Positions 29,979-63,561 of a DNA stretch of 64,000 nucleotides are shown here, piece by piece. Origin of the DNA: a plasmid; sequence record NZ_CP085281.1. One strand, 5' to 3'. The position numbers were made by a program, and so were the translations under genes. A model generated the notes under the pieces. It did not search any database. It saw only the letters and a program-made list of their open reading frames with translations, and was not told where the DNA came from. Position 1 is the stretch's first letter. Every line of letters begins with the position of its first letter.

Positions 29979-30008
29979 GGGGGACGTGCTATCGGCGCTG
30001 GTCGGTGG
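29979..30008 (+). repeat. dispersed ~30-bp repeat, copy a
   Basis: gggggacgtgctatcggcgctggtcggtgg. Confidence 0.6.
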
Positions 30009-30153
30009 CGCTACGAGGGATCAGGATCGGTTGAGCGCCACCAGAGCCACTGATCCTGCGGCTGAGGCTGCTGGGTGACCATCTGCTGCAGCTGGTGTGG
30101 CAGCTGGTCGCATAGCTGCTCCGCCGGCTGAGCCTTCGGCCTGCCTTCGCCGC

Positions 30154-30609
30154 TCACGACGGCCACGGCAGATTCTCGTGCTGGTGCTTCCGCGTGGTCC
30201 GGACGGCGCGAAGTTCGCGTCGCTGGTCTTGGGCGTAGCGGCGGGCCAGCACCAGGTCTTGCCACCAGGGGGTGCGCTCGACGTGGCCGGCCAAGGTGTC
30301 GATCTGCAGATCGGTCAGGCCGGCCAGGGCGCCGGCGGCATCGTGTGCGGCCAGGACGACGATACCGCGCATCAGGGGCACGTTGCTGGGCGTGAAACCT
30401 GTTGTGGCGAGGTAGATCTCGGTGGCGTTGCGGTTGACGCGGCGGTGCGAAGATCGGGTCGACGGCGTGAACCAGAAGTCGATGGTCCCGTCGCTGCTGG
30501 TGAGCGTCTCCAGGTCGCATTCGCGGATGAGGTCGGCGATGTCGTCGACGCAGCGGACACGACGCTTGTACAGCTGGCCGTTGTGGCTGGCGACAAGTAC
30601 TTGGAACAT
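30154..30609 (-). CDS. hypothetical protein
   Basis: ATG at 30609 (M29 of the listed ORF) with GGAGGA RBS. Confidence 0.5.
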   Translation of the reverse strand: MFQVLVASHNGQLYKRRVRCVDDIADLIRECDLETLTSSDGTIDFWFTPSTRSSHRRVNRNATEIYLATTGFTPSNVPLMRGIVVLAAHDAAGALAGLTDLQIDTLAGHVERTPWWQDLVLARRYAQDQRRELRAVRTTRKHQHENLPWPS

Positions 30610-30770
30610 GTGGTCCTCCTCGGCGCGTCGTTGCTGTGAAAGGTAGCCCGTCGGCGCCCCCACGGCGGCCCGCCGCGTCGGGGGACCTGCCATTTGCCGT
30701 GGTCAAGCGGCGTGCCTAGCGGTTCCGATAAGGAGGCTTATCAGTTCGAGATTGGCGGTAGTGCTTGCGA

Positions 30771-31085
30771 ATGAGGTGTGCTGGGACGGTGGATGACGAC
30801 GTGTTGGAGCGGGTTCGCCAAGCGGTAGCCGGGCTGGATGGCCGGTGGTTCGCCGACTTCGAGGAGGTCTGCTCCTTGGCGGAGGTTCTCGTCGAGATGG
30901 ACGTCCTGACCGCGCGGCGCGACGTCGTCGACTTCTTCCGCCGGCCGTGGCGCTTCACCGCCGAGCACGACGTGTGGGTGCGGTGCGGGCGGCCGGTGGA
31001 CGTGCGCGGGTCCGCCGGCGCGGCGCTGGAGAACTTGGTGGACGCTGCCGGCCGCGGCGATACGCCGCTGACACTGACCCGATAG
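30771..31085 (+). CDS. hypothetical protein
   Basis: AAGGAGG at 30731. ATG at 30771, or the TTG at 30765. Confidence 0.4.
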   Translation: MRCAGTVDDDVLERVRQAVAGLDGRWFADFEEVCSLAEVLVEMDVLTARRDVVDFFRRPWRFTAEHDVWVRCGRPVDVRGSAGAALENLVDAAGRGDTPLTLTR

Positions 31086-31116
31086 CGCGTGTGACCTCGG
31101 GCGATAGCACGTCCCC
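31081..31116 (-). repeat. dispersed ~30-bp repeat, copy b (reverse orientation)
   Basis: Reverse complement reads ggggacgtgctatcgcccgaggtcacacgcgctatc. Confidence 0.55.
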
Positions 31117-31845
31117 GACTGGGGGTCAGCCGCTGGCTGCTCCTTGAGCGCCGTCTTGCGCGGTGCCCTCCTGGGGCCAGGATCCTGGAGTCGGGTTATC
31201 GCCGGGGACATGTCATCGCCGCTGGTCAGCACGCTGCCGCGCCTGTGGCAGCGGCGGCATCGACGATCTTCGGACCCGGGCGCGAGTCAACGTTCTGCCA
31301 GAAACGCTGACGGTCCTCGGGTGCTGAGCCGGCCGTAGGTCTCCTGAGTGGCCAGCTGCAACGCAGTGTCGCCGCGGCCGCGGTACGCCGGGCTGCGGAG
31401 ATCGTCGATGCCGCCGGGAGGGTGGTCGCCTCCTCCATCTGGTTTTTGGTCGTCTACTCAAGAAGTACCTGCGCCGACCGGTGTTTCCGTCAATTCGATG
31501 TGGGCGAATTTCACCGGTGGCGAGTCGGCAGGGGTGTCGTTGCGCGCTGCTAGCGTGGATTTCGACGTCCTCCTCCCCCCGAGGACGTTCCCCGCGCCCC
31601 GGTCGCCCTCCCCCCTGGCGGCCGGGGCGCATCACGTTTCAGCCCGGTCGGCGAGGCCTTCAGACGGTTCCGCGTGCTTACACTGGGCCCATCGCCACGC
31701 ACGGCGGCGTGAATCCCGGCATCGACTGCAGCCGCCCACATCGGCCAGTCACGTCAGACCGGGACAAGACCCACCGGGTTCCGTGTCACTACCCAGCAAA
31801 GAGACTTCCGCGCAGATGTGGGGCGACGCGGAGGATTTACTTTGG

Positions 31846-32664
31846 ATGGGAGCAATCATCATGTCTCGCAACGAATCGCGCGAACGCGCCGCCCGTGAGT
31901 TCCAGGCGGCCAATCCGGGGACGTCCTACACCCGCGCTCTTCGGCAGGTCAGCCGCGGCGGTCAGCGGCGCCCGCTGTTGGCGGTCCTCGGCACCGGTTC
32001 TGACGGTGCCAGCGTGTCGGTGAATCTGGAGTGGGAGAGCGAGGGCGGGTCCGGGCCCCACTGCTTGATCGCCGGCGCCGAAGTGCCGGCCCTGCTGGCC
32101 GTCCTTGCCGCCGGGCTCGCGTCAGGGCAGCGGGCAGGGGATCTCGAGTTGGTGCTCTGCGCGGGTGAGGCCACGCAGTTGACGGTGGAGCACCGGCGGG
32201 TCGGTGCCGACGAGCTGGTCGGGCATGTCGACGATGTCTTGAGGTCCCGTCATGAGTTCCTGCGCTCGGTGGAGGCGCGCGATGTTGTGCAGGCCCGTGA
32301 GCGCGGGCACCAGGTGCCCACCACAGTGGTGCTCATCGAGGACCTGGACGGGCAGTGGGGCGCGTCTGCGGCCGTGGGTCGCTGGCTGCGGATTGGACGA
32401 TCGTCCGGGGTGAACGTGGTCCTGGGCGCCCCTGCCGCGTCGCCGTCGATCTGGGCTGACGACATGTCCCCGGCGCACGTGGTCGATCGCTTGGCGCGGG
32501 CCGCGTTGGCTGGTGATGCCGCGTTCATGAATGCGACGACCGCCGCGATTTTCGGCCTCGGAGATGGCCGTGCGACGCTGCGTACGCTCGGGCGATGGAA
32601 CCCCGTCCGCCGGGTTCGAGAAGCTGACACGCTGTCCGATTTCACCTTCGCTGCACCTCAGTAG
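31846..32664 (+). CDS. degenerate FtsK/SpoIIIE-like pseudo-ATPase
   Basis: GPHCLIAGAEVPAL sits where FtsK-family proteins have PHxLIAGxTGSGKS, so the Walker A Lys/Ser are lost. Walker-B-like VVLIEDLDGQ. GGAGGA RBS before the ATG at 31846. Confidence 0.45.
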   Translation: MGAIIMSRNESRERAAREFQAANPGTSYTRALRQVSRGGQRRPLLAVLGTGSDGASVSVNLEWESEGGSGPHCLIAGAEVPALLAVLAAGLASGQRAGDLELVLCAGEATQLTVEHRRVGADELVGHVDDVLRSRHEFLRSVEARDVVQARERGHQVPTTVVLIEDLDGQWGASAAVGRWLRIGRSSGVNVVLGAPAASPSIWADDMSPAHVVDRLARAALAGDAAFMNATTAAIFGLGDGRATLRTLGRWNPVRRVREADTLSDFTFAAPQ

Positions 32665-32682
32665 GCTGGCACTGAAACAGCA

Positions 32683-32940
32683 TCAGTAGTGGTAGCGAGC
32701 CTTGAGGATCTTCACCTCGTCGTTGTCGGCGCGGTAGACCAGCCGATGCTCATCGTCTATCCGCCGCGACCAGTAGCCCGACAGGTCACCCTTCAACGGC
32801 TCCGGCTTCCCGATGCCATCGAACGGATCCCGCTGAATCTCGTTGATCAGGCGCACGATTCGGCGTGCCATCTTGCGATCTGCGGCCAGCCAGTACTGGA
32901 AATCCTCCCAACCGTCCGGGTCGAAGTGAATGCTTCTCAC
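32683..32940 (-). CDS. yoeB: YoeB/Txe-family toxin
   Basis: [31 protein letters not shown] and the C-terminal ARYHY closely match YoeB. Confidence 0.85.
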
Positions 32941-33221
32941 TCCTGGCCGCCGGCCAGCTTCCGAATCTCTTCGATCGTCGTGGCATGCACACCGGAGTCT
33001 GAACCTCGCGCCCTATCTCGCGCGACAGCATCCATCAAGCGGCGTGCGTTCTCGGGGGACCGGAGCAGGTAGACCGTCTCTTGCCAGGAGTCGTAGTCGT
33101 CGGCGGACATGAGCACCGCGTCACCAGCCTTGGAGGTGATGCGGACCGGTTCGTGATCCGTGTTGACCTGCTCCAACAGTGGAAACAGGCGCTGACGTGC
33201 TTCACTGGCGCTGATCGACAC
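32937..33221 (-). CDS. yefM: YefM/Phd-family antitoxin
   Basis: [41 protein letters not shown] at 33221 with GGAG 8 nt upstream. 4-nt overlap with yoeB. Confidence 0.7.
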
Positions 33222-33296
33222 CTTCCTCACCTCACTCCGTCTCGTACGGCTTTCCTGTACCAGTACAGTACGGCATTCTGGCCTGAGAGGCTGGCT

Positions 33297-34352: not shown

Positions 34353-34402
34353 GTTGTGCGACGTGTCGTTAGATCGTAATTCCGTTGTCCTCGAACGTGT
34401 CT

Positions 34403-35089
34403 CTACGCTCGGCGTGAGTGGCCGAACTCTTCGATGAGGTGGTCGACGAACAGTGGCACTTCTTGGGTGGCTGGGGCCTGCCAGACTTGGTCGAAGGGTC
34501 CGTTACCGGGTTCGATGTTGATTTCGATGGTGACCGCGCCCGCGGATTTGGCGATCGCCGCGAATTGGTTCGCTGGGTACACCGTTCCGGAAGTGCCGAC
34601 GGCGACGAAAATGTCGGCTGCGCTGAGCTTCTCGGTGACGTGATCGAGGCCGATCGTGCGTTCCCCGAACCACACGACGTGGGGGCGCCAGTGCCGGTCT
34701 GTCTCGGCGACGTCATGGCGCCAGTCAAGTATTTCACCTGTGTCGACATGGCGGATCTTTGACAGTTCACCGTGCATTGCAGTGATGCGAAGGCTCCCGG
34801 CGCGCTGATGCAAGTCGTCGATGTTCTGCGTGACGAGATGGATCTGGTCTCCCAGCGCGCGTTCGAGCCGTGCCAGTGCGTGATGAGCTGCGTTGGGTTG
34901 GGCCTGGGCCATCTGTCGGCGCAGGCGGTTGTAGAAACGCTGCACCAGCTCCGGGTTGGCGGCGAACCCCTCGGGAGTGGCTACATCTTGGACTCGGTGG
35001 CCCTCCCACATGCCGGTCGGGCCGCGGAACGTCGGCAGTCCTGATTCGGCGCTGATGCCCGCGCCGGTCAGCACCACAATGCGGGGCAC
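34403..35089 (-). CDS. Sir2-family NAD-dependent deacylase-like protein lacking the zinc-ribbon Cys motif
   Basis: GAGISAESGLPTFRG, TQNIDDLHQRAG, catalytic HG, VAVGTSGTVYPA. No Cys at all between HG and VWFGE. GTG start. Confidence 0.8.
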   Translation of the reverse strand: MPRIVVLTGAGISAESGLPTFRGPTGMWEGHRVQDVATPEGFAANPELVQRFYNRLRRQMAQAQPNAAHHALARLERALGDQIHLVTQNIDDLHQRAGSLRITAMHGELSKIRHVDTGEILDWRHDVAETDRHWRPHVVWFGERTIGLDHVTEKLSAADIFVAVGTSGTVYPANQFAAIAKSAGAVTIEINIEPGNGPFDQVWQAPATQEVPLFVDHLIEEFGHSRRA

Positions 35090-35101
35090 GTGCGGATCGG
35101 T

Positions 35102-35479
35102 TCAGTTCTCGGTGGCCGTTGGGCGCAGTGGGCCGCGGACCGGCATCGCCATCATTAAGAGTCGCGTGACCGTGACCGCGAATAAGGTTTGGAGGGCCGC
35201 GCCGGCGATGACGATGATTACTTGGGCGCCGTAGGGGAAGTCGTTCAGTGATCCGGTGTTGGTACTGGTCGCTCCACCATTTGTCAGCTCGGTGACCGTG
35301 GTTGAAAGGTACGGGACTGCGATGGTGACGAAGCCGAAGGCCAAGAGGCCGGCGACCGCACCGATTACAGCTGCTAGGGGCACGGTACCCAGGTCGAGAA
35401 GCGCGGCGAGGAACTTCTCCCTAGGTGTGGCCCAGCGGTAGCCCGGCCCGGGATCGGGCAGATCCTGCTGTTTTCTCAT
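35102..35479 (-). CDS. small membrane protein (two predicted TM helices)
   Basis: Hydrophobic stretches LAAVIGAVAGLLAFGFVTIAV and VIIVIAGAALQTLFAVTV. Its stop is 12 nt from the Sir2 start. Confidence 0.5.
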   Translation of the reverse strand: MRKQQDLPDPGPGYRWATPREKFLAALLDLGTVPLAAVIGAVAGLLAFGFVTIAVPYLSTTVTELTNGGATSTNTGSLNDFPYGAQVIIVIAGAALQTLFAVTVTRLLMMAMPVRGPLRPTATEN

Positions 35480-35772: not shown

Positions 35773-35789
35773 TGTGCTCCTCCTTGGCT

Positions 35790-36907: not shown

Positions 36908-36925
36908 GGGGGCTTTCTCCTTGGG

Positions 36926-37321: not shown

Positions 37322-37365
37322 GGTGTTCTCCTCCCGTTGGGTCGTGCGACCGTCTCTGCGTCTGA

Positions 37366-37506: not shown

Positions 37507-37890
37507 GTGAGGGTGATTCTTCGGACGCCGGCCGAACTGGTCGCCGAGTACGACCTTCCCGACGTGGACAGCGGGGCGAGCGACGAGGAGATCCTGGCGG
37601 CCGCGGCCGCGGCCGAGCCGATTCGGCGATCCGAGCCCGAGGTCGTCGGTGAGACCTATGTCTACGCCCGCGGGTTGGATGACTTGGCGCAGCAGGGACG
37701 GCGCCTGATTCAGGCTGACTCGCGGCTCGACAGCGAGAAGAAGGCCGCCCAGCAGCTGGCGCGGCGGTACCTGGCGCAGGGCCGCAGCAAGCGCGACATC
37801 GCCCAGACACTGCACATCACGCGCAAGACGTTGGACGCCTGGTTGGGCGACACTGAACCGCGCGAGCCCGCGCGAAGTGATGAATCATGA
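37507..37890 (+). CDS. hypothetical HTH regulator
   Basis: GTG start after GAAGGAGA. C-terminal RSKRDIAQTLHITRKTLDAWL. Confidence 0.5.
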   Translation: MRVILRTPAELVAEYDLPDVDSGASDEEILAAAAAAEPIRRSEPEVVGETYVYARGLDDLAQQGRRLIQADSRLDSEKKAAQQLARRYLAQGRSKRDIAQTLHITRKTLDAWLGDTEPREPARSDES

Positions 37891-37964
37891 CCGGGCCGTG
37901 GCAGCACCGATACCACCGGTTGAGCTGGACCAATCGCACGTCCCCGCGTTGCTACTATCGCTGC

Positions 37965-38630
37965 ATGGCCGACGGGCAGGTGTGGGGCCGGCTGCGTGAG
38001 GTGGCTGCCGGCCAATTCGGCCTGTTCACCGCAGCCCAGGCCCGCCAGCATGGAGTGGCCCGCTACGAGCTGACCCGCCGGATCGACTCCGGGGAGCTGT
38101 TTCGGGCCCACCACGGTGTGTACGGGTTCACCGCGGACTCCGCGACGATGTTCGCGTTCGAGGACTGGGCTGCGCAGTGGCTGGCCTTGCGTCCGGAGGC
38201 GGACATCGAGCAGCGGCGAGCCGATCCGGATTGCGTCATCAGTCACGACAGCGCGGCGGTGATCCAGGAGTTGGGCACGATCGTGGCCCGGGGCTTGTTC
38301 TTGACCGGGCCGCGGCGCATCAACGCCCGCTCGGCGCGGGTGCACGCCTATCGCCGCGATATCGGTGAGCGTGGTGTCGACTGGGACGTAGTGAAGGGTC
38401 TTCCGGTGTCCACTCCGGGGCGGATCATCGCCGACCTGGCCCGTGATGATCTCGATGGTGCCCATCAGGGTGCGGTGATCGCCGACGTTCTCGACGAGGG
38501 CCTGCTGACCCTGGACGAGGTGGGTGCTCGCCTGGATCCGTTCGCGCACCGGTGGGGTGAGTCCGGCGGGGCGGAGTTGGCGCGGCGTTTCCTGGCTGAC
38601 GCTGGGCGTGCGCTGCCGCTGTCGGTATAG
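37965..38630 (+). CDS. abiEi: AbiEi-type antitoxin/transcriptional regulator
   Basis: N-terminal GRLREVAAGQFGLFTAAQARQHGVARYELTRRIDSGELFRAHHGVYGF, typical AbiEi. ATG at 37965. Confidence 0.7.
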   Translation: MADGQVWGRLREVAAGQFGLFTAAQARQHGVARYELTRRIDSGELFRAHHGVYGFTADSATMFAFEDWAAQWLALRPEADIEQRRADPDCVISHDSAAVIQELGTIVARGLFLTGPRRINARSARVHAYRRDIGERGVDWDVVKGLPVSTPGRIIADLARDDLDGAHQGAVIADVLDEGLLTLDEVGARLDPFAHRWGESGGAELARRFLADAGRALPLSV

Positions 38631-38639
38631 CGCAGGAGC

Positions 38640-39668: not shown

Positions 39669-39670
39669 CC

Positions 39671-39697
39671 GCTCACCTCGGCCAATGACACGTCCCC
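39671..39697 (-). repeat. dispersed ~30-bp repeat, copy c (reverse orientation, intergenic)
   Basis: Reverse complement reads ggggacgtgtcattggccgaggtgagc. Confidence 0.6.
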
Positions 39698-41658: not shown

Positions 41659-42597
41659 TCAGCTGAGGCTACGCAGGAGCTGGCCCAGGCGTACGAGTCG
41701 TTGGCCGGTCGCCAGGCATTTGGGGGCCAGGTGGGCGCCGCGGCCGTCGGAGAGTTGCTCGGCGAGCGTCGTGGGTTCGCCGGCGGCCAGGACTGCGGTG
41801 ATCGCCGCCTCCAGATCCAGGAGTACCTGCGCCGCGGCGCCGGAGCTTGGGGACGTGTCCTCGTCGCTGGTCCGGGTGTTTTTGACGGGATCGCCGGCGG
41901 GCGTGGCCGGTGCGGCCGCCGCTGTGGCGCCGACCGCTGGGGATGTGTCATCAGGGCTGGTAGGGGTGTTTTCGTCGTCGCCCCATGGCGGGGCGCTGGA
42001 TGTGGATTCCTGGCCGCCGCCGGTGGTGATGTCGAACGGTGGCGCGTCGACGTCGACGTCGTCGGGGATCTCCGCGGGGACCAGGGCGCCCAGTGGGGAT
42101 GCCGGCGGGGTCGATGATTCGTGCAGGGGGCCGAAGCCTGGGGCGGTGGAGCGCTGGGTGACGGTGTCGATGAGGTCGCGCAGGGCGTCGGTTTGGGCGT
42201 CGGGGTCGGTGAGTCCCTCCAGCACCGCGGGGGCTTGTTCGATGACGACGCGGGCGCCGGTGACCCCGAGGCGGGCGACGTCGGAGGAGGTGACCGGGAT
42301 GCGGGTTCCGGGGGCGGTTAGTTCCTGCAGGGGCAGGATCAGGCCGACGATGCCCTGCTGGTAGCGGCGGGCGTTGGAGGCTGCGCATCCGAGTTGGTCT
42401 TGGACGAAGGCGGTGAAGCCGGTGTAGGGGCGGCCGGCGCCGTCGTTGATGTAGCGCCAGTCCTCGTCGCGGTAGATCTCGGCGAGGACCTCGAACGCCG
42501 TCTGGAAGGCGTTGTGTAGCAGCTGGGCTCGGCGCAGGGCGCGTTCTTGGCGGGTTTCGATGACGCCGGCTTCTTGGAAGGCGAGGTCGGTGCTCAT
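41659..42597 (-). CDS. hypothetical protein with Pro/Thr-rich tail carrying two DTSP repeat insertions
   Basis: ATG at 42597 (M32) overlaps the upstream stop (ATGA). Contains repeat copies d and e. Confidence 0.5.
   Translation of the reverse strand: MSTDLAFQEAGVIETRQERALRRAQLLHNAFQTAFEVLAEIYRDEDWRYINDGAGRPYTGFTAFVQDQLGCAASNARRYQQGIVGLILPLQELTAPGTRIPVTSSDVARLGVTGARVVIEQAPAVLEGLTDPDAQTDALRDLIDTVTQRSTAPGFGPLHESSTPPASPLGALVPAEIPDDVDVDAPPFDITTGGGQESTSSAPPWGDDENTPTSPDDTSPAVGATAAAAPATPAGDPVKNTRTSDEDTSPSSGAAAQVLLDLEAAITAVLAAGEPTTLAEQLSDGRGAHLAPKCLATGQRLVRLGQLLRSLS
41849..41878 (+). repeat. dispersed ~30-bp repeat, copy d
   Basis: ggggacgtgtcctcgtcgctggtccgggtg. Confidence 0.55.
41939..41968 (+). 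repeat. dispersed ~30-bp repeat, copy e
   Basis: ggggatgtgtcatcagggctggtaggggtg. Confidence 0.5.
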
Positions 42598-44704: not shown

Positions 44705-45781
44705 ATGACGAGACGAACTGCTACCCAGGCTCGCTACCGCAACGCCCTCATCGGGTTGGCCGCCGGCGACGCGTGGGGCTACCAGGTCGAATTCCGTAAG
44801 TACGCCTGCATGCCCGCCTACCCGGTGCCCGCACCCAAGAAGATCTGGCGGATCTCCGACGACACCCAGATGACGCTTGCCCTGCACGACGCCCTCGTCG
44901 ACGTCGCCGGCCAGCTCGACGACATCGACGCGGTAACCAAGGCCATCACCGAGCGCTTCCTCGAATGGCAGGTCGACCGCGACAACAACCGTGCGCCGGG
45001 GGCCACGTGCATGGGGTCCCTTACACGTCTGCGGCGCGGCATTCAGTGGCACGAAGAGGCTGGCGCGCTGGCCCGGCCTGGCTGCGGGGCCGTGATGCGG
45101 CTCGCGCCGGCGGCCCTGTGCCCGGAGCCGGTGTGGCGGGGCATCACTGCGTTGCAGGCGGTGCTGACCCACAAGCATCCGCGGGCGATCGCGTCCGCCC
45201 TGGTGCTCAGTGACGCCATCCGGTCTGCGACCACGGTGCGTGGGCATTTTCTCGAACATGCCATCAGCGCGGCGATGTCGGTCGTTTCGGGTGAAAGCCC
45301 GTGGCTGCGTGACGATTACCTGCTGCGGGTACTTTCACCGATGACCTCGGACATTTCCGGCCTGCTGGCCGCGGGCGTCAAGGACGTCCTGCTCGATGCG
45401 CTCCTGGACGCCTACGCCGTCAAGCAGGAGCTGACCACGCTGACCCCAGCGGAGTACGGCGACCCCTGCGTGGGAATCGGTGAGGGCTGGGAGTCGGGCA
45501 CGGCGACCGCCCTCGGGCTGCTGGTGGCCGACATGGCCACCGCGCCCGGGCGGCGTCGGGCTCCCCTCAACGGGCGCGAGGCGCTGGCGTGGGCGGCAAC
45601 GAGCAATGGCGACTCCGACTCGATCGCCAGCATCGCCGGCGCGGTCATCGGCGCCGCGCACACCGGGTCGAGCTATTGGGCCGGGGTGAAGATGGCCCCC
45701 CGGTTCGAGCCGCGGTACGCCAAGGCGCTGAGGGCGGCTCCTGCTGCAGCTGTTGGCTTTCTCGCGGCGAGCGCGGGGTGA
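44705..45781 (+). CDS. ADP-ribosylglycohydrolase (ARH/DraG family)
   Basis: GLAAGDAWGY, SDDTQMTLA, GCGAVMRLAP, NGDSDSIASIAGAVIGA. ATG at 44705 after GAAAGG. Confidence 0.8.
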   Translation: MTRRTATQARYRNALIGLAAGDAWGYQVEFRKYACMPAYPVPAPKKIWRISDDTQMTLALHDALVDVAGQLDDIDAVTKAITERFLEWQVDRDNNRAPGATCMGSLTRLRRGIQWHEEAGALARPGCGAVMRLAPAALCPEPVWRGITALQAVLTHKHPRAIASALVLSDAIRSATTVRGHFLEHAISAAMSVVSGESPWLRDDYLLRVLSPMTSDISGLLAAGVKDVLLDALLDAYAVKQELTTLTPAEYGDPCVGIGEGWESGTATALGLLVADMATAPGRRRAPLNGREALAWAATSNGDSDSIASIAGAVIGAAHTGSSYWAGVKMAPRFEPRYAKALRAAPAAAVGFLAASAG

Positions 45782-46395
45782 GTCTGGTGCGACCAGGTGC
45801 ATCGGTGGGCAAGTCCGCGAAGATCCGGGACGCTGCGCTTGCGGAGTTCGCGGCGCGTGGTGTTGAAGCCACCTCGTTGCGGCAGGTGGCGGCTAGGGGT
45901 GGTGTCTCAATCGGGTTGGTCCAGCATCACTTTGGTAGCAAAGCCGGTCTCGTCGAGGCTGTCGATGCGCACGTGGCCGACGTGGTTGGCGAGGTGCTGG
46001 TCTCTGCTCCTGAAGCGGTGACGGTCGAAGCGTTTGGTGATCAGTTGATGGCGCTGCTGACGCAACACAGCGTGGTCGCGGAGTACCTCGCTCGGGCGAT
46101 GGCGGACAAGACGCCCTTCGGGTCAATGATTTTCGATCGGTTGATCGCGATGGGCGTTGCGCGGTGGAAGTGCCGCAGCGGCGCCGGCCGAACCTGTGCC
46201 GATGTGGACACCGTGTGGGCGGTGATGAATGTGGTGGTGCTCTTCATTGGCACCATCTTGTTGCGACCTCACGTTGAGCGCCAGCTGTCCGCACCGTTGT
46301 TATCGCCTGACCAGGTGGTCCGGTGGAGGTCCGCCGTCGCCGCATTGACAGCCAAAGGGGTATCTCTGACACGCATGCCGCGCGGCGCGGAATAG
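45778..46395 (+). CDS. TetR-family transcriptional regulator
   Basis: HTH AALAEFAARGVEATSLRQVAARGGVSIGLVQHHFGSKAGL. GTG overlaps the ARH TGA (GTGA). Confidence 0.75.
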   Translation: MSLVRPGASVGKSAKIRDAALAEFAARGVEATSLRQVAARGGVSIGLVQHHFGSKAGLVEAVDAHVADVVGEVLVSAPEAVTVEAFGDQLMALLTQHSVVAEYLARAMADKTPFGSMIFDRLIAMGVARWKCRSGAGRTCADVDTVWAVMNVVVLFIGTILLRPHVERQLSAPLLSPDQVVRWRSAVAALTAKGVSLTRMPRGAE

Positions 46396-56519: not shown

Positions 56520-56635
56520 CGGTGAAGGGTCCTTTCGTTGGACTTGATGTTTCCATTATTGGCGATCGCCGGCAATTATCCGCACGTCAAAGCGTGTTTG
56601 TTTGATGGTTGGATTCGCCGAGGGCATCTGTGGGT

Positions 56636-58990
56636 TCATGCCGAGGCCAGGTGGGTTTCTGCGAGGTCGCGGACGTCGAGGAAGGCGTCGCTGGCCACCT
56701 CGGTTTCTTCGCGTTCTCCGGAGTAGATGTCGCGCAGGATGAGCACGGTTGTGTCTGGGCTGTCCCCGGCGGTCGGTTCGTCGTCGAGGATCATCCAGCC
56801 GCCGGTCTCTGGGTGGCAGAGGTAGTCGCCGATCTCCAGTTCGGCGACGGACACGCGGCGGCTGTCGAGGTCGGTGGGGGCATAGCTGGAGACGAGGTCT
56901 TCTGTGGAGCTGGCGGTGCGCGGGCCGCCGGGGGCGGATCCGAAGATGGAGTCGACGCCGTCGTCGACGAGCGCGAGCCATCGTGGTGGGTCGTAGTCGG
57001 GCGAGGCCGGATCGAAGTGCGGGTAGTCGGCGGCCTTGAGCAGCGGCAGCGCCTCGTAGGTGACGTAGTCCTCGGGGTCGGTGATCGGGTCGGTTTCCGG
57101 GGGCATGATGACGCCGCGTTCATACAGCGAGACCGGTGGGCGCAGTTCGTCGACGATCCGCTGCTCTTCTTCGCTGCCGGGGTCGTCGAGGTCGGGGACG
57201 TAGAAGGTCTGGACTTCGGTGGGGATGCCGGCGCTGTTGAGTGCGGTGCCGCGGCCGCGGATTCCGATGGGAATGGTTCGCCCGGCGTTGGCGTCGCTGT
57301 GGATCATTTGTGCGGCAACGGAACTGAGCTTGCCCAGGGAGACTCGCATCGTGAAGTTGTCCTTGGCTTCGCCTTCGAGGAACTTCTGGTCGGCGCGCTG
57401 CAGGGCGGCCACGCAGTGCAGGCGTGCGGTGCGGGCGAGGCGCAGGATGGACGAGAACTTCTGAATCGTCGGGCAGGCTCCCTTGCCGCCGGTGCTGGCG
57501 TAGAGGGACTTCATGGCCTCTTGGAACTCGGCGTATTCGTCGAAGATGATCATGAAGGGCACTTCGTTGGCCAGTGATCGCTTGTTGCGTTTGTAGAGGT
57601 TGTAGCGGCGGCGCATCTCCTTGTGCAGGGTTGCCACCAGTGCGGCGGCTTCGTGCGGTTCGGTGATGACCGCTACGACATTCGGGTAGTCGCGGAACGC
57701 GGTGAACTCACCGCCCTTGAAGTCGATGATGAAGATCTGGCAGCCCAACCGTGCTCCGTTGACGAGCGCGTTGTGGATGAGAGCGGTCTTGCCGGTGCCG
57801 GTCGGTCCCATGAGCAGCATGTGCGGGTTGACCTTGAGGTTCCACTCGATGAGGGTTCCCTCTTCGTCGACGGCGAGCGGAATGGTTGCCCGTTCGTAGC
57901 GTTGGCAGGCTTCCTCGACGCTGGTGACGGCTGGGCGGATCGGTGGGTATACGCGCGTGGGTAGCTCGGTGCGCATTTCGAATGTTGCTGTGCCGCTGAG
58001 GTTGTCGTTTCGGATGCAGCGCCAGCGGCCGGGTAGTCCGAGGTCGCTGATCTTGCGGGCGATCACGCGGAGCCGATCGGTGCCGGCGAGGGCGCTTCCG
58101 ATCTTGTGGCGCACGGTGAACCTGATCAGGTCGCCGTTGCCGCTGTAGTCGTGCTCGGGGTCGATGATGACGGTGGCCCCTGAGTCGAAGAGCGCCTTGG
58201 AAGCGATGTGTTCCCGTAGTCCCCGGACGAGGTCGGACTCGCTGCTGGGGCTGGCCAGTGTGGCGGTGATGAGTTGGTCGGTCGTGGCGAAGGACAGCGA
58301 GAAGTGCCCTCCCACAGCGTCATCGAGGCGCTTGTTGAGTTGTGGCTTGAGCTCTTCGCGGCGGCCGCGGTAGGCCAGCAGGACGGTCTTGGGCTTGTCG
58401 GGCTGGCCCTCGACCTCCTCGTCCCATTCGGTGATGGCCACGACCCGGCGCCGGGGCAGCTCGTCGTAGCCCAGGTAGGGGTAGAGGGCCCATTCGATCT
58501 CGTTGAGGTAGCGGGCGCGTTCGCTTCGTTCGCGCAGTTTCTCGGTGAGCACGTCGGCCAGGCCGTAGGCCGCGATGATGCCGATGGCCGCGGCGATGAG
58601 GTCGGGGACGAACGGGATGAGCGCCAGGATGAGTAGGCCGCCGGTCAGGGCGGTGGCCGCCAGCACCGGCGCGGCGACCGGGGGCACGGGGCGGCGGTCG
58701 TCGGGGTCGTGTTGTACCGGTGCGGCCATCCGGATCCCGATCATCACCGCGGCCGCGATTCCCAGCGCGATCGCCACCAGGGCGCCGACGGTGAGCAGGG
58801 TGGGTCCGGCGGTGTTGGGGTTGGCGCCGGGGAGGGCGAACAGGGGTCCGGACGTCGTGAAGTAGCCGTGCTGTACAGCCCAGGAGGTGGCGGTCGTGGC
58901 GAAGTTCAGCCACAGTGCGCCCAGGACCACGGGGACGGCGACGATGGCGGCCAGCGCCGGATTGCGTTGTTGGCTATCGGTTTTTGCCAT
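56636..58990 (-). CDS. membrane-anchored FtsK/SpoIIIE-family ATPase (conjugative DNA-translocase or coupling-protein-like)
   Basis: N-terminal TM helices, Walker A LMGPTGTGKTALIHNAL, FIIDFKGGEF, Walker-B-like FMIIFDEYAEF. Single ATPase domain, 784 aa. Confidence 0.7.
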   Translation of the reverse strand: MAKTDSQQRNPALAAIVAVPVVLGALWLNFATTATSWAVQHGYFTTSGPLFALPGANPNTAGPTLLTVGALVAIALGIAAAVMIGIRMAAPVQHDPDDRRPVPPVAAPVLAATALTGGLLILALIPFVPDLIAAAIGIIAAYGLADVLTEKLRERSERARYLNEIEWALYPYLGYDELPRRRVVAITEWDEEVEGQPDKPKTVLLAYRGRREELKPQLNKRLDDAVGGHFSLSFATTDQLITATLASPSSESDLVRGLREHIASKALFDSGATVIIDPEHDYSGNGDLIRFTVRHKIGSALAGTDRLRVIARKISDLGLPGRWRCIRNDNLSGTATFEMRTELPTRVYPPIRPAVTSVEEACQRYERATIPLAVDEEGTLIEWNLKVNPHMLLMGPTGTGKTALIHNALVNGARLGCQIFIIDFKGGEFTAFRDYPNVVAVITEPHEAAALVATLHKEMRRRYNLYKRNKRSLANEVPFMIIFDEYAEFQEAMKSLYASTGGKGACPTIQKFSSILRLARTARLHCVAALQRADQKFLEGEAKDNFTMRVSLGKLSSVAAQMIHSDANAGRTIPIGIRGRGTALNSAGIPTEVQTFYVPDLDDPGSEEEQRIVDELRPPVSLYERGVIMPPETDPITDPEDYVTYEALPLLKAADYPHFDPASPDYDPPRWLALVDDGVDSIFGSAPGGPRTASSTEDLVSSYAPTDLDSRRVSVAELEIGDYLCHPETGGWMILDDEPTAGDSPDTTVLILRDIYSGEREETEVASDAFLDVRDLAETHLASA

Positions 58991-58991
58991 A

Positions 58992-60383
58992 TCAGTACCC
59001 CTTCGGCGGTGCGTAGGGATTCGCTTGCTGCACTTTGTGCATGAGGTCAGAGCCGTCGGCAGATACCTGGTAGCGGGTCATGACGTAGTGGATGGCGGCC
59101 GCGGCGTTGGCGACGGGGTCGTAGATGTTGCGTGAGGTTCCGGGTCGCCAGTGGGCCGCGAACGTGGAATCGATGGTCTGCATCCAGCCCTTTGACGGTG
59201 TTCCCTTGGCGGCGTTGGAGTCTGACCCGTTGATGGCCCTCGGGTTGTTGCCCGATTCGCGCTGTCCCATGGTCATCAGGCCTGGTAGCCAGTTCGCGAC
59301 GGCGCGGGGGTCGGTGATTCCGTTGGCGGCGAGCGCTTTGATGGCCCAGGCCTTGGGGCCGCCGGCGGCCAGGAGCTGCTTCTGTTCGTCGCTGTCGGGT
59401 CCGCCGGCGTTGAGGTCTTTGAGGTAGTCGGCGGACATCGCCTTGATGGTGCCGGCGTTGAGTGAGTCCTTGCCGACGGCGTCGCTCAGCACGGCGCCGG
59501 CCTGTTGCAGGCCTTGGGCGATGGTGGTCAGGACCCCGAGCTGGCCCATGGGGGTGTTGGCGATGGGCCCCATGGCTTGCAGGGCGGTCTTGACCTGGTT
59601 GATGATCTGTTCGATCTTGTCGCGGCCCATGGTGGAGTTGGCCGCTGAATCTTGAAGTGACGTGCGGAGTTTGCGCTCCAGGTTGTCCATGGCGCGGGCT
59701 TGGTTGGCCTGCTTGTCGACATCGGATTGGTAGGCGTCCCCCGCCTCGCCGGTCATGCCGGTGCTGGCGTCGGTGTTGCCGAGTCGGTCGAGCACTCCTT
59801 CGGGGAAGCCGCTGGACGACGGCATCGCCGGGTTGCCTTGGCCGAACTGGTTGAGGATTTGACCGAACGGTGCCAGCAGCCCGGAGCCGATACCCATCAG
59901 GGCCGACGGCAGGCTGGCCAGCGGCTGGGTCAGGCCCGAGAGCATGCCGATCGCGTCTTGGGGGTTGATGGCGGACTTGGCCGCGGCGTCGGCGGCGTCT
60001 TTCGGCGCGGACTGGTCGGCGCCGTCTGTATCTGCGCCGCTCTGGCCGGATGGGGCGCCGGCGGGGGCTGCGGGGCTCGTCGGCGGGGTCGCAGAACCCG
60101 CGGCGGGCGCGGCCGCGGCGGGTGACGGGGTGGCTGGGGGCGTCGTTGGTGCCGGGGCGGCGGATGTGGGATTGGCCGCCGGTGCGGCGGCGGGCTGCTG
60201 TGTCGGCGCCGCGGGAGCGGACGGCGCAGCTTGTTGCTGTGGGGCGGGGCTGCCAGGGACCCGGGGGAAGATCGGCAGGACCGGGCGGCGCTGGTTGTCG
60301 CGGTGGCTGGTGTCGGGGGTCGACGTTCCGAGCCCGGGCGGCAGCGGAGGTGCTGCGGTGTCGGCGAGCTGGTCTTCGCTCAT
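58992..60383 (-). CDS. Pro/Ala-rich protein with C-terminal lytic transglycosylase (SLT) domain (VirB1-like)
   Basis: C-terminal QRESGNNPRAINGSDSNAAKGTPSKGWMQTIDSTF fits the SLT E-S..GLMQ signature. Long Pro/Ala-rich N-terminal region. Confidence 0.6.
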   Translation of the reverse strand: MSEDQLADTAAPPLPPGLGTSTPDTSHRDNQRRPVLPIFPRVPGSPAPQQQAAPSAPAAPTQQPAAAPAANPTSAAPAPTTPPATPSPAAAAPAAGSATPPTSPAAPAGAPSGQSGADTDGADQSAPKDAADAAAKSAINPQDAIGMLSGLTQPLASLPSALMGIGSGLLAPFGQILNQFGQGNPAMPSSSGFPEGVLDRLGNTDASTGMTGEAGDAYQSDVDKQANQARAMDNLERKLRTSLQDSAANSTMGRDKIEQIINQVKTALQAMGPIANTPMGQLGVLTTIAQGLQQAGAVLSDAVGKDSLNAGTIKAMSADYLKDLNAGGPDSDEQKQLLAAGGPKAWAIKALAANGITDPRAVANWLPGLMTMGQRESGNNPRAINGSDSNAAKGTPSKGWMQTIDSTFAAHWRPGTSRNIYDPVANAAAAIHYVMTRYQVSADGSDLMHKVQQANPYAPPKGY

Positions 60384-61366
60384 GGGGTCGGCACCTCCTG
60401 GTTGGTGTGCAGGCGTGGCCTTTTGACGATGACGTTGCCGGTCGGCAGGACGCCGACTGCGATGGGTTGGTTCAACGTGGTGGCGTCGATGCCGAGGGTG
60501 GGGGTGATGGCGATCATGACGGCGGTGGGCCCGTGGTCGGGGGTGAAGTTGAAGAAGACCAGGTCTCCTGGGCTGATCGCGGTGGGGTCGACCCGGTCGC
60601 CGGTGTCGATCTGGGCTGCGACGTCCTTCGGCAAGGTGATCTCTCCCCCGGTGGCCTGGTAGTAGGCGTATCTGACCAAGTTAGCTGCCGAAAAGGCGTT
60701 GTTCGAAGGTCCAGCGGTGCTTCCATCTGAGTCGGTTGCCAGCAATCCGACCTGCTGATTGGCCAGGTCCGCGGCGCGCCGGCCGGTCTCGTCGCCGGGT
60801 GTTTTGAGGGGCGCGCCCACGATGTCGCCGGTACGGACGGCGTTGGCGCATGCCGCGGTCTTGGCGTCAGCGGTGGGCGGGGCGGTCAGCGAGGCGTATG
60901 GGTTTGCGGGGGACGTGCTATTTGCGCTGGTCGTCGTCGTGGTGGTGGCAGTCACGGTGGTGGTGGGTGTGGTCGTGGGGGGTGTCGTGGTGGCGGGTTG
61001 CAGCAGGGTCGTCTCCCAGGTCGTCGCCGGCGGTGTGTCATCCAGCGCGACGGAGGTGGCCAGGCGGGGGACGACCGCCATGGATGCGGTGTTGCCGATG
61101 GAGTATCCGAGTCGGGATTCGCACTGGTAGCTGAAGTTGGTGCGCTGATCGGACATGCGGCTCAACGCGACGATGGCGGTGATGAGAAGGACGAGGGCCA
61201 ACACGATGATGACGGCGGCGATCGCCAGGATCACCGGCCAGCCCAGTGCGCCGACGGCGGCGGATCCGGCGGAGGCCGCGGCTTTGCGGGCGCCTTGCGC
61301 CGCGGCCGCGCCGAGCAGCGATTTCAGCGCTGACTGCCGGGGCGGCTCTGGGGGCGGCTGAGTCAT
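60380..61366 (-). CDS. membrane-anchored protein with Thr-rich linker and C-terminal NlpC/P60-like domain lacking the catalytic Cys
   Basis: NNAFSAANLVRYAYY aligns to the NlpC/P60 FDCSGLVQYVY block with Cys replaced by Ala. SPGDLVFF and DHG retained. Contains repeat copy i. Confidence 0.4.
   Translation of the reverse strand: MTQPPPEPPRQSALKSLLGAAAAQGARKAAASAGSAAVGALGWPVILAIAAVIIVLALVLLITAIVALSRMSDQRTNFSYQCESRLGYSIGNTASMAVVPRLATSVALDDTPPATTWETTLLQPATTTPPTTTPTTTVTATTTTTTSANSTSPANPYASLTAPPTADAKTAACANAVRTGDIVGAPLKTPGDETGRRAADLANQQVGLLATDSDGSTAGPSNNAFSAANLVRYAYYQATGGEITLPKDVAAQIDTGDRVDPTAISPGDLVFFNFTPDHGPTAVMIAITPTLGIDATTLNQPIAVGVLPTGNVIVKRPRLHTNQEVPTP
60908..60936 (+). repeat. dispersed ~30-bp repeat, copy i
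   Basis: gggggacgtgctatttgcgctggtcgtcg. Confidence 0.55.
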
Positions 61367-63561
61367 GATCGGTCCTGGTCATCGCGGGGCTGGGGGGCCG
61401 GCGGGGGTGGCAGTGGCCGTGCAGCGCCGGTGGATGGGGGTTTCGGTGGGTTCGGCGGTGGCACTGGCCGGCGCGGGTCGGGTGCGTGTTCGAACGGTGA
61501 GGGTGGCGCGGCGTCGGCTGGCCCGACGAGTGGCGCGCCCCCAGCAGCCGTGGGGGACGTGTCGTTGGTGCTGGTCACAGGATTTTCTATGTCGGGAAGC
61601 GCAGCTCCCGACCCCGTCTTGGGTGCCGGCGGCGGCCCTGGTGGCAGGTTGGGGGCGGCCGAGCGTCCGGAATCCTCGAAGGCCTTCGGCGGCGTGGTCT
61701 GCAGGTCGGTCGCCGAAAAGGACTGGCTGCCAGCAGGGGCCGTGTTGTCGGGTGCAGCGCCGAACTGCGTCGTGGGTGGCGCTGAGCGCGACGGCGGGGT
61801 CCCCGTGGCGCCGCTGGTGGCCGGCGGGGGCGACGGCGTGGGAGGCGACGTCGTCGACGCGGGTGCCTCGGGCATGTTCACCGTGGGTGGTGTGCTGGCG
61901 GGCTGCTGGCCATTGCCCTGCGCCTTGTTCTGCTTGGCCTGGTCCTTTTCGGCTTGCTTAGCGGCCTTGTCGGCGGCGCGTTGGGCTTGCTCCTGGTTGC
62001 GTTCGTAGATGTCGGCGCCGCGGTCGAGGTGCCGGACGATGGAGCTGCGTCCTCCCCGGACGAACGGGGCGACGACGTGTAAGGCGTGGGTGGCTGACGG
62101 TGACCGCGCAGCCAGTGCGCCGCCGGCCATGGTCGAGCCGAGGCCCAAGGCGACGACGCTGGTGTCGCGCAGGAAGCCGCCGGCCTTTTCGTGCAGGATG
62201 TTCGTCGTCGGCGGCGGTGGGGTGGCCCCGACGCTGTTGAGGACTCCGGCTGCGACGTTGGTGCTGGATTCCTTGAGGCTCTTGGACACCGTGAAGATCA
62301 GCCGGATGGCCACCACCATCAGGATCAGGGCCGAGAGCATGGCCACCACGCCGTTGCCTTGTTGGCGGAAGACCACGGTGACGATCTCGCCGATGAAGAT
62401 GGTCAAGGTGATGTAGGCGAACATCGCCACACCGGAGAACAGCATCGCGACGAAGGTGTTGACCAGGGATGCCTGGGGTCCCCCGGGGATGACGCCGACG
62501 GCGAAGCCCCAGAGCAGCTTGAAGGCGTTGCCTACCGCGCGGAAGAACTCGAGCACGATGTGGAATCCGAGGACAGCGCAGAAGAGGGCGAAGATGCCGG
62601 CGAACATCAGCATCAGGACGCCGGTGCCCAGCTGGCCTGGGCTGGGGTTGTCGGCAGTGGCTTTCATGGCAGCCGAGTCGGGGGCGCCGCAGCTGCGGAT
62701 GCCGTCCTTGATGTTGTCGGGGTCCCCGGAGTTGACGCCGTTGCTCCATGCGGTGGCGCAGCTCGGGGTGTTGTCAGGTTGGCCGGCAAAGTTCCACGTC
62801 TGCAGCGGCCTGCGGACGAAGGAGGTGGCCAGGGTCCCCTCAAGTCGGCTGAGGGTCTCTTTGGTGTTGGTGGCGCCGGCGATGGAGTTAGAGCCGAGGC
62901 TAACGGCGACGTCGCGACCCTGGGCCAGGGGGCCGGAGTCGGAAATGACCCAGCTGATGGGCGAATAGACCAATGCGCCGCCGACGATCGCGATGAGGAC
63001 CGCCGCGGCGGCCTGCGATGCTGCGCGCGGCAGATTCTCGCGCAGGATGTTGACCGCGATGAAGGTGGCGGCGATGACCGCGGCGATCGCGGCGACGCCG
63101 GGCACGATCTGGGCGGCGTAGCTCTGGGCGACCGCGGCGACGGGCTGGACCAGGTCGGGCAGGAATCCGAAGCTGATGACGTACATCAGGAACCAGATGG
63201 CGACGCCGCCGATCACGACGAACAGACCGGCTTCGGCTTCGAGCAGGGTCGCCAGGACGGCCTGGGATCCGCCGTCGAGGACGGATCCGTAGTCGGTGGA
63301 GATGGCGTAACGCGATAGCGGGACGCCGTAGGAGTCGGTGACGCCGAGCACGTACAGCAGCGGGCTTTGAGGCCCGATCGCGGCGTGCGCTTCAGCGGGA
63401 AAGGTCAACGCGATCAGGCATAGGCACAGCTGCAGGTAGATCGGCAGCATGGTGAAGCGGCGCAGCCGGGTGGCCGTGGACAGCGCCCAGCCGCGGGCGA
63501 AGAGTTGGTTCAGCGTGGGCAGGGCGGGATCCCAGCCGGGGAAGTACGCGGCGGTCAACAT
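61363..63561 (-). CDS. polytopic membrane protein (VirB6/TrbL-like) with Pro-rich C-terminal tail
   Basis: Multiple TM helices, ATG at 63561 (M75) overlapping the upstream stop by 1 nt. Pro-rich tail contains repeat copy j. Confidence 0.5.
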   Translation of the reverse strand: MLTAAYFPGWDPALPTLNQLFARGWALSTATRLRRFTMLPIYLQLCLCLIALTFPAEAHAAIGPQSPLLYVLGVTDSYGVPLSRYAISTDYGSVLDGGSQAVLATLLEAEAGLFVVIGGVAIWFLMYVISFGFLPDLVQPVAAVAQSYAAQIVPGVAAIAAVIAATFIAVNILRENLPRAASQAAAAVLIAIVGGALVYSPISWVISDSGPLAQGRDVAVSLGSNSIAGATNTKETLSRLEGTLATSFVRRPLQTWNFAGQPDNTPSCATAWSNGVNSGDPDNIKDGIRSCGAPDSAAMKATADNPSPGQLGTGVLMLMFAGIFALFCAVLGFHIVLEFFRAVGNAFKLLWGFAVGVIPGGPQASLVNTFVAMLFSGVAMFAYITLTIFIGEIVTVVFRQQGNGVVAMLSALILMVVAIRLIFTVSKSLKESSTNVAAGVLNSVGATPPPPTTNILHEKAGGFLRDTSVVALGLGSTMAGGALAARSPSATHALHVVAPFVRGGRSSIVRHLDRGADIYERNQEQAQRAADKAAKQAEKDQAKQNKAQGNGQQPASTPPTVNMPEAPASTTSPPTPSPPPATSGATGTPPSRSAPPTTQFGAAPDNTAPAGSQSFSATDLQTTPPKAFEDSGRSAAPNLPPGPPPAPKTGSGAALPDIENPVTSTNDTSPTAAGGAPLVGPADAAPPSPFEHAPDPRRPVPPPNPPKPPSTGAARPLPPPPAPQPRDDQDRS
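61552..61581 (+). repeat. dispersed ~30-bp repeat, copy j
   Basis: gggggacgtgtcgttggtgctggtcacagg. Confidence 0.65.

Follow-up and report, generated by a model that had tools for sequence, protein, structure and literature searches.

Short DNA sequences that recur around a replicon take a number of well-described forms. The operator OB of plasmid RK2, a 13-bp perfect palindrome present in 12 copies, is read by KorB, a plasmid-encoded global regulator of the ParB type. The DNA uptake sequence (DUS) of Neisseria, the uptake signal sequence (USS) of Haemophilus, the FtsK orienting polar sequences (KOPS), the SpoIIIE recognition sequences (SRS) and the TraB recognition sequences (TRS) of Streptomyces are words of 8-12 bp, of which KOPS and SRS are strongly strand-polarised and TRS are clustered in the clt locus. 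Here we describe a 24-bp motif dispersed over 64,000 nucleotides of a plasmid (record NZ_CP085281.1). This whole stretch, which we call the window, is part of a 215.7-kb plasmid of Mycobacterium avium subsp. hominissuis, and encodes a 661-amino acid (aa) protein that is 100% identical to LIX17_25990. Our reading of the motif in this plasmid covers that 64 kb of the 216 kb. No published account of the motif was found in the literature searched by sequence string and by topic.

The cluster A mycobacteriophages contain dispersed stoperators, the sites of monomeric repressors of the L5 gp71 type, which when bound block the elongation of transcripts. These lie in short intergenic gaps by gene ends, some of them over promoters, and have lineage-specific variants (PMC9283540, PMC6550527); their orientation follows the direction of transcription and is required for function (PMC9283540). 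The plasmid motif resembles them in that at least 20 copies of a short asymmetric site are dispersed over one actinobacterial mobile replicon, at the similar density of about one per 2-3 kb of backbone, with placement by gene ends and with lineage-specific variants. Unlike the 13-bp stoperators it is 24 bp long and bipartite, and many copies lie in coding linkers. Its non-coding copies have no orientation bias, it is carried by plasmids and is essentially absent from phage contigs, and no repressor combining a helix-turn-helix (HTH) with a stoperator domain was found among ten window proteins (64 kb of the 216-kb plasmid). As with the KorB operators, one conserved site recurs over a plasmid backbone, whether in a promoter, between genes or at a distance from any promoter, but the motif is asymmetric overall, quasi-palindromic only in its core, and far more numerous. 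Like the uptake and translocase words it is an over-represented 'self' word, selected as DNA, tolerated in coding frames and often found just downstream of genes; unlike them it is 24 bp long, unpolarised and restricted to plasmids. Repetitive extragenic palindromes and bacterial interspersed mosaic elements (REP/BIME) and miniature inverted-repeat transposable elements (MITEs) are also short multi-copy elements that follow genes. REP and MITE repeats are palindromic or have terminal inverted repeats, whereas the motif has neither, and forms no hairpin.

In the strand sense of the transfer genes the consensus of 290 non-redundant copies is G-ACCWGS-RNNR-ATGACAYGTCCCC, or GACCWGS-N4-ATGACAYGTCCCC when written short, giving a total of 24 bp. 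It is the reverse complement of the GGGGACGTG... form given in an initial annotation of the window. Positions 2, 4, 12, 16, 17, 19 and 21-23 are near-invariant, and the 4-nt spacer is free. There are two conserved blocks, ACCWG (block A) and ATGACAYGTCCCC (block B), while the spacer and flanks drift; in orthologous non-coding alignments the identity is 0.907 for the core, compared with 0.776 for the 40-nt flanks and 0.763 for the spacer. The core of block B, GAC-AY-GTC, is a quasi-palindrome of 8 bp that becomes the perfect palindrome GACATGTC in the ACATG variant, while the whole 24-mer is asymmetric owing to block A and the CCCC tail. Its GACC and CGTC elements are ~13-14 nt apart, and conservation is highest in the ATGACA between them. 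The idea that the variable dinucleotide generates an in-frame stop (TGA, TAG or TAA) or a start ATG was dropped, as the position is simply purine-purine, with GG also found. The ACATG variant occurs in 45/274 copies of the whole sample. It is present in all three copies of locus L126 and in four of the five of locus L003 (the fifth is ACAGG), non-coding copies included, and since both loci were retrieved by protein they are unbiased. Such a lineage-wide shift is as expected if the sites co-evolve with a putative reader.

The motif is greatly over-represented in the window. The 13-mer GGGGACGTGYYAT is matched 16 times with up to one mismatch, where 0.34 matches are expected. Allowing up to three mismatches, GGGGACGTGYYAT-N7-GGTC has 19 matches against 1.23 expected, a number equalled in none of 100 shuffles. 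The ten full copies listed in the initial annotation are all present, displaced by 1-14 nt, and to these we add nine more (Table 1). Its range of 29979-61581 is too small, as copies begin ~5.1 kb into the window, and the partial copy it placed at 24822 (GGGGACGCGGTGGTGCGGAACGAGGTC) has only GGGGACG and GAGGTC in common with the motif, at the wrong spacing, and does not rise above chance. A three-mismatch match at 53081-53104 (GGGGACGTGCTGAAGTGGCAGGAC), antisense in gene 52571..54982, was set aside as doubtful. Its agreement is limited to the GGGGACGTGCT part. The M. avium plasmid p1-JPH1 and Rhodococcus have it at the orthologous position as well, and it is probably ordinary coding conservation plus chance.

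In the four transfer genes, on the minus strand, the copies lie in frame within Pro/Thr-rich linkers, as had been noted, and the peptide is (T/S)(S)x(N/D/E)(D/S)TSP. Is it the peptide or the DNA that is conserved? Fifty-three matches were gathered by peptide pattern alone, without consulting the nucleotides. Serine 7 is encoded by TCC in 53/53 of these against a background share of 0.28, threonine 6 by ACG in 42/44 (background 0.22), aspartate 4 by GAT in 28/29 (background 0.21) and asparagine 4 by AAT in 15/24 (background 0.15). The next proline codon, the third base of which lies just outside the motif, is free (CCC 20, CCG 16, CCA 12). Of 77 homologues of the 661-aa protein, which extend as far as Rhodococcus, most contain the peptide as an island within otherwise unalignable linkers. 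Its variants there (DDMSP, NDTSL, DDMSR, TW.., TR.., TC..) are chemically radical, replacing T by M, P by L or R, and S by W, R or C, yet they are single-base changes. A Rhodococcus orthologue with 60% amino acid identity has the exact sequence AATGACACGTCCCC, so that the same peptide is written in the same codons, disfavoured ones included. The serine codon is TCG in the 49208 copy of gene 48103..50088 and AGC in the neighbouring copy; this switch at first suggested selection on the peptide, and is explained by the W-G/C-S freedom of the DNA motif. Codons fixed against usage, together with the 216/290 copies that lie outside genes, argue against a short linear peptide motif. The divergent codons and absence from non-coding DNA that would mark a mere shared linker peptide are not what we find, as the motif is abundant in non-coding DNA. 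These data show that selection, which is purifying, acts on the nucleotides and not on the peptide or transcript, and the initial view of a DNA-level element accommodated in linkers is borne out.

Genes in the fetched loci were called with our own codon-usage caller, the output of which closely matches the RefSeq annotation of the Rhodococcus jostii plasmid pRHL3. By these calls about three quarters of the copies are non-coding. Between tandem genes 61 are co-directional with transcription and 54 opposed, showing no orientation bias, and a further 31 lie in convergent and 23 in divergent gaps; 92 face the stop of a convergent gene and 88 face a start. The median distance to stop codons is 54 nt on the 5′ side and 86 nt on the 3′ side, while start codons are farther away, at a median of 135-160 nt. 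Several window copies start 5-8 nt past a stop. Such after-stop copies are in frame with the upstream open reading frame (ORF) in 5/11 cases checked by hand, which is not different from one third. The three sites that the initial annotation placed near 29990, 31100 and 39685 are indeed non-coding, with true positions at 29980, 31093 and 39674.

Of the in-gene copies, 58 are co-directional with the gene and 16 antisense. All but one of the 58 (57) use the frame xxG-ACC-..., and of the two remaining sense frames one holds TGA or TAG. Positions 5-7 are TGC, AGC, AGG or TGG in non-coding copies, whereas AGC, which gives serine and not cysteine, arginine or tryptophan, is found in 48/58 coding copies. 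Co-direction with transcription in 17/19 copies of the window is due for the most part to its coding copies; in p1-JPH1 the corresponding number is 18/23. We have shown that the in-gene sites keep to disordered linkers, and nearly always to the frame giving the harmless T-S-x-N-D-T-S-P.

How general is the motif? A scan of one genome per species, using the motif as search pattern, returned 110 loci. The seed copy of each was thus selected by the pattern, and some of the loci are relatives of one another. Of the 110, 89 are plasmid-like contigs, R. opacus pHG201 included, and come from Mycobacteriaceae, Rhodococcus, Nocardia/Prescottella or actinomycete metagenome-assembled genomes. At least two copies are present in 69 of these 89 Mycobacteriales loci, at a density of 3-4 per 10 kb and up to nine in 8 kb, whereas the 21 loci from unrelated taxa have the seed copy only, as chance predicts. 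There are 12 matches in a related M. avium locus where 0.74 are expected, and four in R. opacus PD630 plasmid 5 where 0.21 are expected. Motif-bearing regions are common to R. jostii RHA1 pRHL1-3 and the plasmids of R. opacus B4 and PD630; in pRHL3 and PD630 plasmid 5 the copies lie in an island of small hypothetical, Lsr2 and regulator genes, with none in catabolic DNA. A phage origin was rejected, as phage contigs (IMG/VR) gave only seven single matches at chance level.

The motif is also widespread within single plasmids. M. avium p1-JPH1 (191 kb), which is about 80-85% identical to the window across syntenic blocks, has ~24 copies with up to two mismatches over its whole length, and their orientation alternates irregularly. 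In the window the minus-strand genes at 41.6-63.8 kb form a type IV-like/ESX-associated transfer region with an FtsK/SpoIIIE ATPase, DUF4226, NlpC/P60 and a VirB4-like ATPase. The motif is specific neither to the transfer region nor to conjugation genes and marks instead the backbone of large plasmids. On this sampling it is characteristic of the large-plasmid backbone in Mycobacteriaceae, Rhodococcus and Nocardia, and several of these replicons are established or reported to be linear. For related giant plasmids of M. avium, which have hybrid type VII/IV loci, a linear form and an absence of relaxases have been reported (PMC12803027).

We consider that these properties are best explained by a dispersed binding site for a putative DNA-binding protein of the plasmid lineage that acts globally, an explanation that we hold tentatively and at a little under even confidence. 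A protein-binding site was one of the mechanisms listed in the initial annotation, and is the one among them that fits best. A putative sequence-specific protein would read the ~24-bp site 5′-G-ACCWGS-N4-ATGACAYGTCCCC-3′ in double-stranded DNA, probably as a dimer seated on the core that makes a further contact one helical turn upstream. It would bind sites plasmid-wide, and the many sites would act globally and not at single promoters. By analogy with phage stoperators or RK2 KorB operators the likeliest output would be silencing or insulation of transcription units, with DNA handling in segregation or transfer as the main alternative. In the packed transfer operon the linker codons would be the only place where such sites could be written. 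That mosaic junctions are enriched at the motif, as described below, would be a by-product of many unrelated modules sharing an identical 24-mer. In a bolder form, which we regard as possible but doubtful, the 24-mer, in dozens of copies per replicon and set into protein linkers for want of intergenic space, would be a 'signature sequence' by which a dedicated protein treats large, often linear, relaxase-less Mycobacteriales plasmids as a unit, with the word serving also as a seam for module exchange across genera; its uses might include loading of double-stranded DNA transfer or segregation machinery, or silencing of the backbone.

A number of observations weigh against a dispersed binding site. 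No binding protein was found among three candidates, ten small window proteins and a clustering of neighbouring genes, in which no DNA-binding family was shared near the copies. A PHROGs scan of ten small or HTH-like window proteins yielded no phage-repressor-like family, and with no PHROGs match a phage-type repressor was rejected as reader. The three candidates (a WhiA paralogue, a sigma-like protein and a protein with six ribbon-helix-helix (RHH) modules) are not common to all motif-bearing plasmids. The sites avoid promoter-proximal positions, which is unusual for a regulator of initiation, and their lack of orientation bias is unlike true stoperators. The breakpoint enrichment could mean that recombination is the function and not a side effect. 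Moreover the analysis uses our own gene calls, related loci and seed copies chosen by pattern.

The WhiA paralogue (window 10149-11219 (-)) has all three WhiA Pfam domains; its identity is ~52% with chromosomal WhiA and 44% with a second paralogue on p1-JPH1. In three related plasmids the contigs that carry the transfer-locus protein also carry close relatives of the paralogue. WhiA binds GACAC (PMC10243135), which occurs in the motif within ATGACAC. The paralogue was rejected, being found in only nine plasmid records, none from Rhodococcus, and many copies of the motif read AGCAC or GGCAC. The sigma-like protein of p1-JPH1 was rejected too, as other plasmids encode no relatives of it. In pRHL3 a 'CopG family regulator' (L125 23570-24937; R. 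jostii RHA1 pRHL3 81880-83181) has six tandem RHH modules in one chain, an arrangement that implies three dimers within the molecule and, as target, a long asymmetric stretch of DNA. A perfect copy of the motif lies 128 nt downstream of the stop of this gene and 81 nt upstream of a plasmid Lsr2 gene. Such a protein would suit a 24-bp site with three subsites, but was rejected since it is confined to Rhodococcus loci and absent from the complete p1-JPH1. Apart from these candidates, an HTH protein beside parA (L005 9939-10694; p1-JPH1 59939-60694) comprises two near-identical tandem modules with 76% identity over 112 aa.

Recombination is the alternative that survives best, and we consider it unlikely. 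The motif would be a crossover point for module exchange. It would serve a site-specific recombinase or nuclease as target, or else be a shared 24-bp microhomology selected for promoting mosaicism. BLAST homology ends within 5 nt of the motif at 10.9% of intergenic ends, compared with 3.7% of random intergenic positions, and 74/80 of the motif-associated ends have no collinear continuation within 600 nt and are true junctions. The 4.9 kb of extra DNA in p1-JPH1 abuts the orthologue (119847-119870) of the copy at 21686-21709, with the breakpoint exactly at the copy, and only 18 nt separate the copy at 31204-31227 from the end of the window-specific block at 27.6-31.2 kb, with p1-JPH1 homology resuming at 31245. 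Placement at gene boundaries just after stops is also consistent with this function. Yet the synteny of window and p1-JPH1 is intact over about 25 kb of the copy-rich transfer operon, which an active recombinase acting on at least 20 sites in both orientations should scramble, and the motif may face either way with respect to the gene beside it, in contrast to integron attC. It is because of this intact synteny and free orientation that we read the enrichment as a consequence of shared 24-mers. It is in any case only about threefold with redundant locus pairs, most copies are not at breakpoints, and no recombinase is consistently adjacent. Of the earlier suggestion of a recombination or single-stranded DNA-structure signal, the first part thus retains some support from the breakpoints, while the second is not supported, for want of a shared hairpin. 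Single-strand folds of nine copies with their flanks gave z-scores of -2.3 to +1.25, mostly around zero, and no common hairpin.

Self-recognition in DNA handling is a further alternative, and also an improbable one. Here the motif would be a loading or recognition word for an FtsK/SpoIIIE-type translocase or a partition protein, marking the plasmid for transfer or segregation, by analogy with TRS and clt, KOPS, parS or the uptake sequences. It draws on the reported lack of relaxases in the related linear M. avium plasmids (PMC12803027). Genes for FtsK/SpoIIIE-family ATPases are found twice in the window, at 6345..7565 and 56636..58990, and once in related loci. The copies are dispersed, independent of gene orientation and promoter-avoiding, the frame-restricted coding copies resemble uptake sequences, and the core is G-rich on one strand (GGGGACGTG), a trait of KOPS and SRS. 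Against this, the motif is 24 bp and not 8 bp, there is a patchwork and no strand polarity along p1-JPH1, the copies are not clustered as in the clt locus, and in motif-bearing Rhodococcus plasmids such as pRHL1-3 the 661-aa protein of the transfer locus had no homologue (E <= 1e-5). The first of the two ATPases (6345-7565 (-)) is a small protein of 406 aa encoded outside the main transfer operon, with the size of the Tra-type double-stranded DNA translocases of Streptomyces and actinomycete integrative and conjugative elements (AICEs). Its relevance lies in the report that the related M. avium linear plasmids are without relaxases.

Two alternatives are very improbable. The first is a selfish mini-repeat, REP- or MITE-like, that spreads itself and persists where it is harmless. 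The copies do lie in neutral places (after stops, in convergent gaps and in linkers), and IS200/IS605 Y1 transposases are found on these plasmids. However, the motif is only 24 bp long with no terminal inverted repeats or hairpin, and the aligned flanks of 53 copies have no duplicated or conserved bases and no inverted termini, so that the MITE-like micro-insertion proposed earlier finds no support. Further, an orthologous copy (39674, against 141809 in p1-JPH1) decays by point substitution and not by excision, and a free spacer between two blocks conserved across genera is the pattern of a binding site, not of recent copies. The second is a signal in the transcript or peptide, either an RNA element (for processing or antitermination, or as a small RNA target) or a short linear peptide motif. 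Most copies in the window and p1-JPH1 are co-directional with transcription, the sense in-gene copies share one frame, and the peptide is a conserved island in divergent linkers. This is largely refuted by the absence of bias among non-coding copies in the large sample (61 versus 54), by the 16 antisense in-gene copies, by codons fixed against usage and by the lack of a common fold. Scanning the window with Rfam 15 at the gathering score gave no motif match, the sole match being an unrelated Transposase-2 RNA at 2932-3000. Replacements of T by M or P by L would destroy a phospho- or recognition peptide, and some three quarters of the copies are untranslated. Least credible of all is a promoter for a plasmid-encoded sigma factor of extracytoplasmic function (ECF) type, with GACC as -35 and CGTC as -10: p1-JPH1 and pRHL3 each encode a sigma-70-family protein and the motif has two blocks, but their spacing of ~13-14 nt is too short for ECF promoters, where it is usually 16-17 nt, the would-be spacer with its ATGACA is better conserved than the rest, every second non-coding copy is directed towards a convergent gene's stop with no preference for a downstream gene, and the p1-JPH1 protein has no relatives on other plasmids.

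Table 1. Copies of the motif in the window, with strand. Source: i, listed in the initial annotation; e, added with the extended pattern; d, added with a slightly different pattern.
Position (strand)	Source	Sequence	Context	Encoded peptide	Orthologue in p1-JPH1
5099..5122 (-)	d	CACCTGGGCCGATGACATAGCCCC (weak, 2 mismatches)	Non-coding, 80 nt outside the IS607 end (IS607 block 2888-5019)		
11922..11945 (-)	e	GACCAGGGGAAATGGCACGGCCCC	Non-coding, 7 nt past stop of hydrolase gene 11953..12921(-); 11260..11856(-) and the WhiA paralogue lie downstream		
14004..14027 (+)	e	AACCAGGCCACATGCCACGTCCCC	Non-coding, ~59 nt upstream of gene 14086..14970(+)		109164-109187, core kept, flanks unrelated
21686..21709 (+)	e	GACCAGCGGAGACGGCATGTCCCC	Non-coding, between two minus-strand genes, hence opposed to local transcription		119847-119870
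23861..23884 (-)	e	CACCAGGGCAAATGCCACGTCCCC	Non-coding, 8 nt past stop of 23893..24147(-), ~94 nt upstream of 22751..23767(-)		126832
29980..30003 (-)	i	GACCAGCGCCGATAGCACGTCCCC (perfect)	Non-coding, between 30154..30609(-) and 27766..29745(-)		
30681..30704 (-)	e	GACCACGGCAAATGGCAGGTCCCC	Non-coding; a DUF3846-like gene begins ~72 nt downstream, probably at ATG 30609, which follows GAGGAGG		
31093..31116 (+)	i	GACCTCGGGCGATAGCACGTCCCC (perfect)	Non-coding, 7 nt past stop of 30765..31085(+)		
31204..31227 (-)	e	GACCAGCGGCGATGACATGTCCCC (ACATG variant)	Non-coding, opposed to flanking plus-strand genes		
32448..32471 (+)	e	GATCTGGGCTGACGACATGTCCCC	In frame within ORF 31348..32664(+)	IWADDMSP	136313, encodes ISADDTSP
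37922..37945 (+)	e	GAGCTGGACCAATCGCACGTCCCC	Near start of AbiEi ORF 37887..38630		Motif 20 nt upstream of annotated AbiEi start
39674..39697 (+)	i	CACCTCGGCCAATGACACGTCCCC	Non-coding, 5 nt past AbiEii stop (39668)		141809, decayed through point changes (3 mismatches)
41849..41872 (-)	i		In frame, linker of gene 41659..42597(-)	TSDEDTSP	
41939..41962 (-)	i		In frame, linker of 41659..42597(-), 90 nt from the 41849 copy	TSPDDTSP	
48971..48994 (-)	i		In frame, linker of the 661-aa protein 48103..50088(-)	SSANDTSP	
49130..49153 (-)	i	GACCAGCGGCAATGACACGTCCCC (perfect)	In frame, linker of 48103..50088(-)	TSGNDTSP	
49208..49231 (-)	i	GACCTCGGGTAATGACACGTCCCC (perfect)	In frame, linker of 48103..50088(-)	TSGNDTSP	
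60909..60932 (-)	i	(perfect)	In frame, Thr/Pro linker of NlpC/P60-like gene 60380..61366(-)	TSANSTSP	
61553..61576 (-)	i		In frame, close to C-terminus of gene 61363..63783(-)	TSTNDTSP	

A few of these contexts recur or have features of their own. A window-specific segment (27620-31244) that is absent from p1-JPH1 has four copies in 1.3 kb, grouped about a divergent pair of small genes of which one is DUF3846-like. A motif copy lies upstream of the DUF3846-like gene in 4/4 members of its family in the loci examined. The same segment includes a 659-aa ORF (27766..29745) with an unusual GC content by codon position (0.59/0.61/0.89). Beyond the copy at 37922..37945 there is a TACTAT hexamer 7 nt on, followed after another 6 nt by an ATG at 37965 (37922-37967); together these resemble the -10 box of a leaderless transcript, and the ATG is not in the AbiEi frame, being 8 nt short of phase. 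In L033, L058, L087, L027 and p1-JPH1 (82171-84514) an ADP-ribosyltransferase-like gene is followed by the gene of a ~60-70-aa protein, and the motif fills the short gap between the stop of the former and the ribosome-binding site of the latter. Few neighbours of the motif are as widespread as an ADP-ribosylglycohydrolase, found in 14 loci.

The window also contains three insertion sequences: IS607 with TnpB (2888-5019), within which lies the Transposase-2 RNA (Rfam RF03015) noted above, IS21 (istA/istB, 18550-21100) and IS200/IS605 (Y1 transposase and TnpB, 25060-26727). Between the AbiE locus and the transfer operon are genes for a Sir2-family protein (34403-35089 (-)), an ADP-ribosylglycohydrolase (44756-45781 (+)) and a TetR regulator (45805-46395 (+)), which suggest a defence or counter-defence island.

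Our analysis shows a clear natural case of dual coding, in which a DNA site is kept within coding sequence by means of disordered linkers and one reading frame. Genes for virulence, catabolism and defence are found on the replicons that bear the motif, and how these replicons are regulated and transferred is poorly understood. The 24-mer provides a compact marker for the plasmid backbone in assemblies and metagenomes, and a ready bait with which to pull down a reader. If a protein reads this word, it would give a handle on how the megaplasmids of mycobacteria, rhodococci and nocardiae, including the type VII/IV transfer plasmids of M. avium, are controlled or recognised as units.

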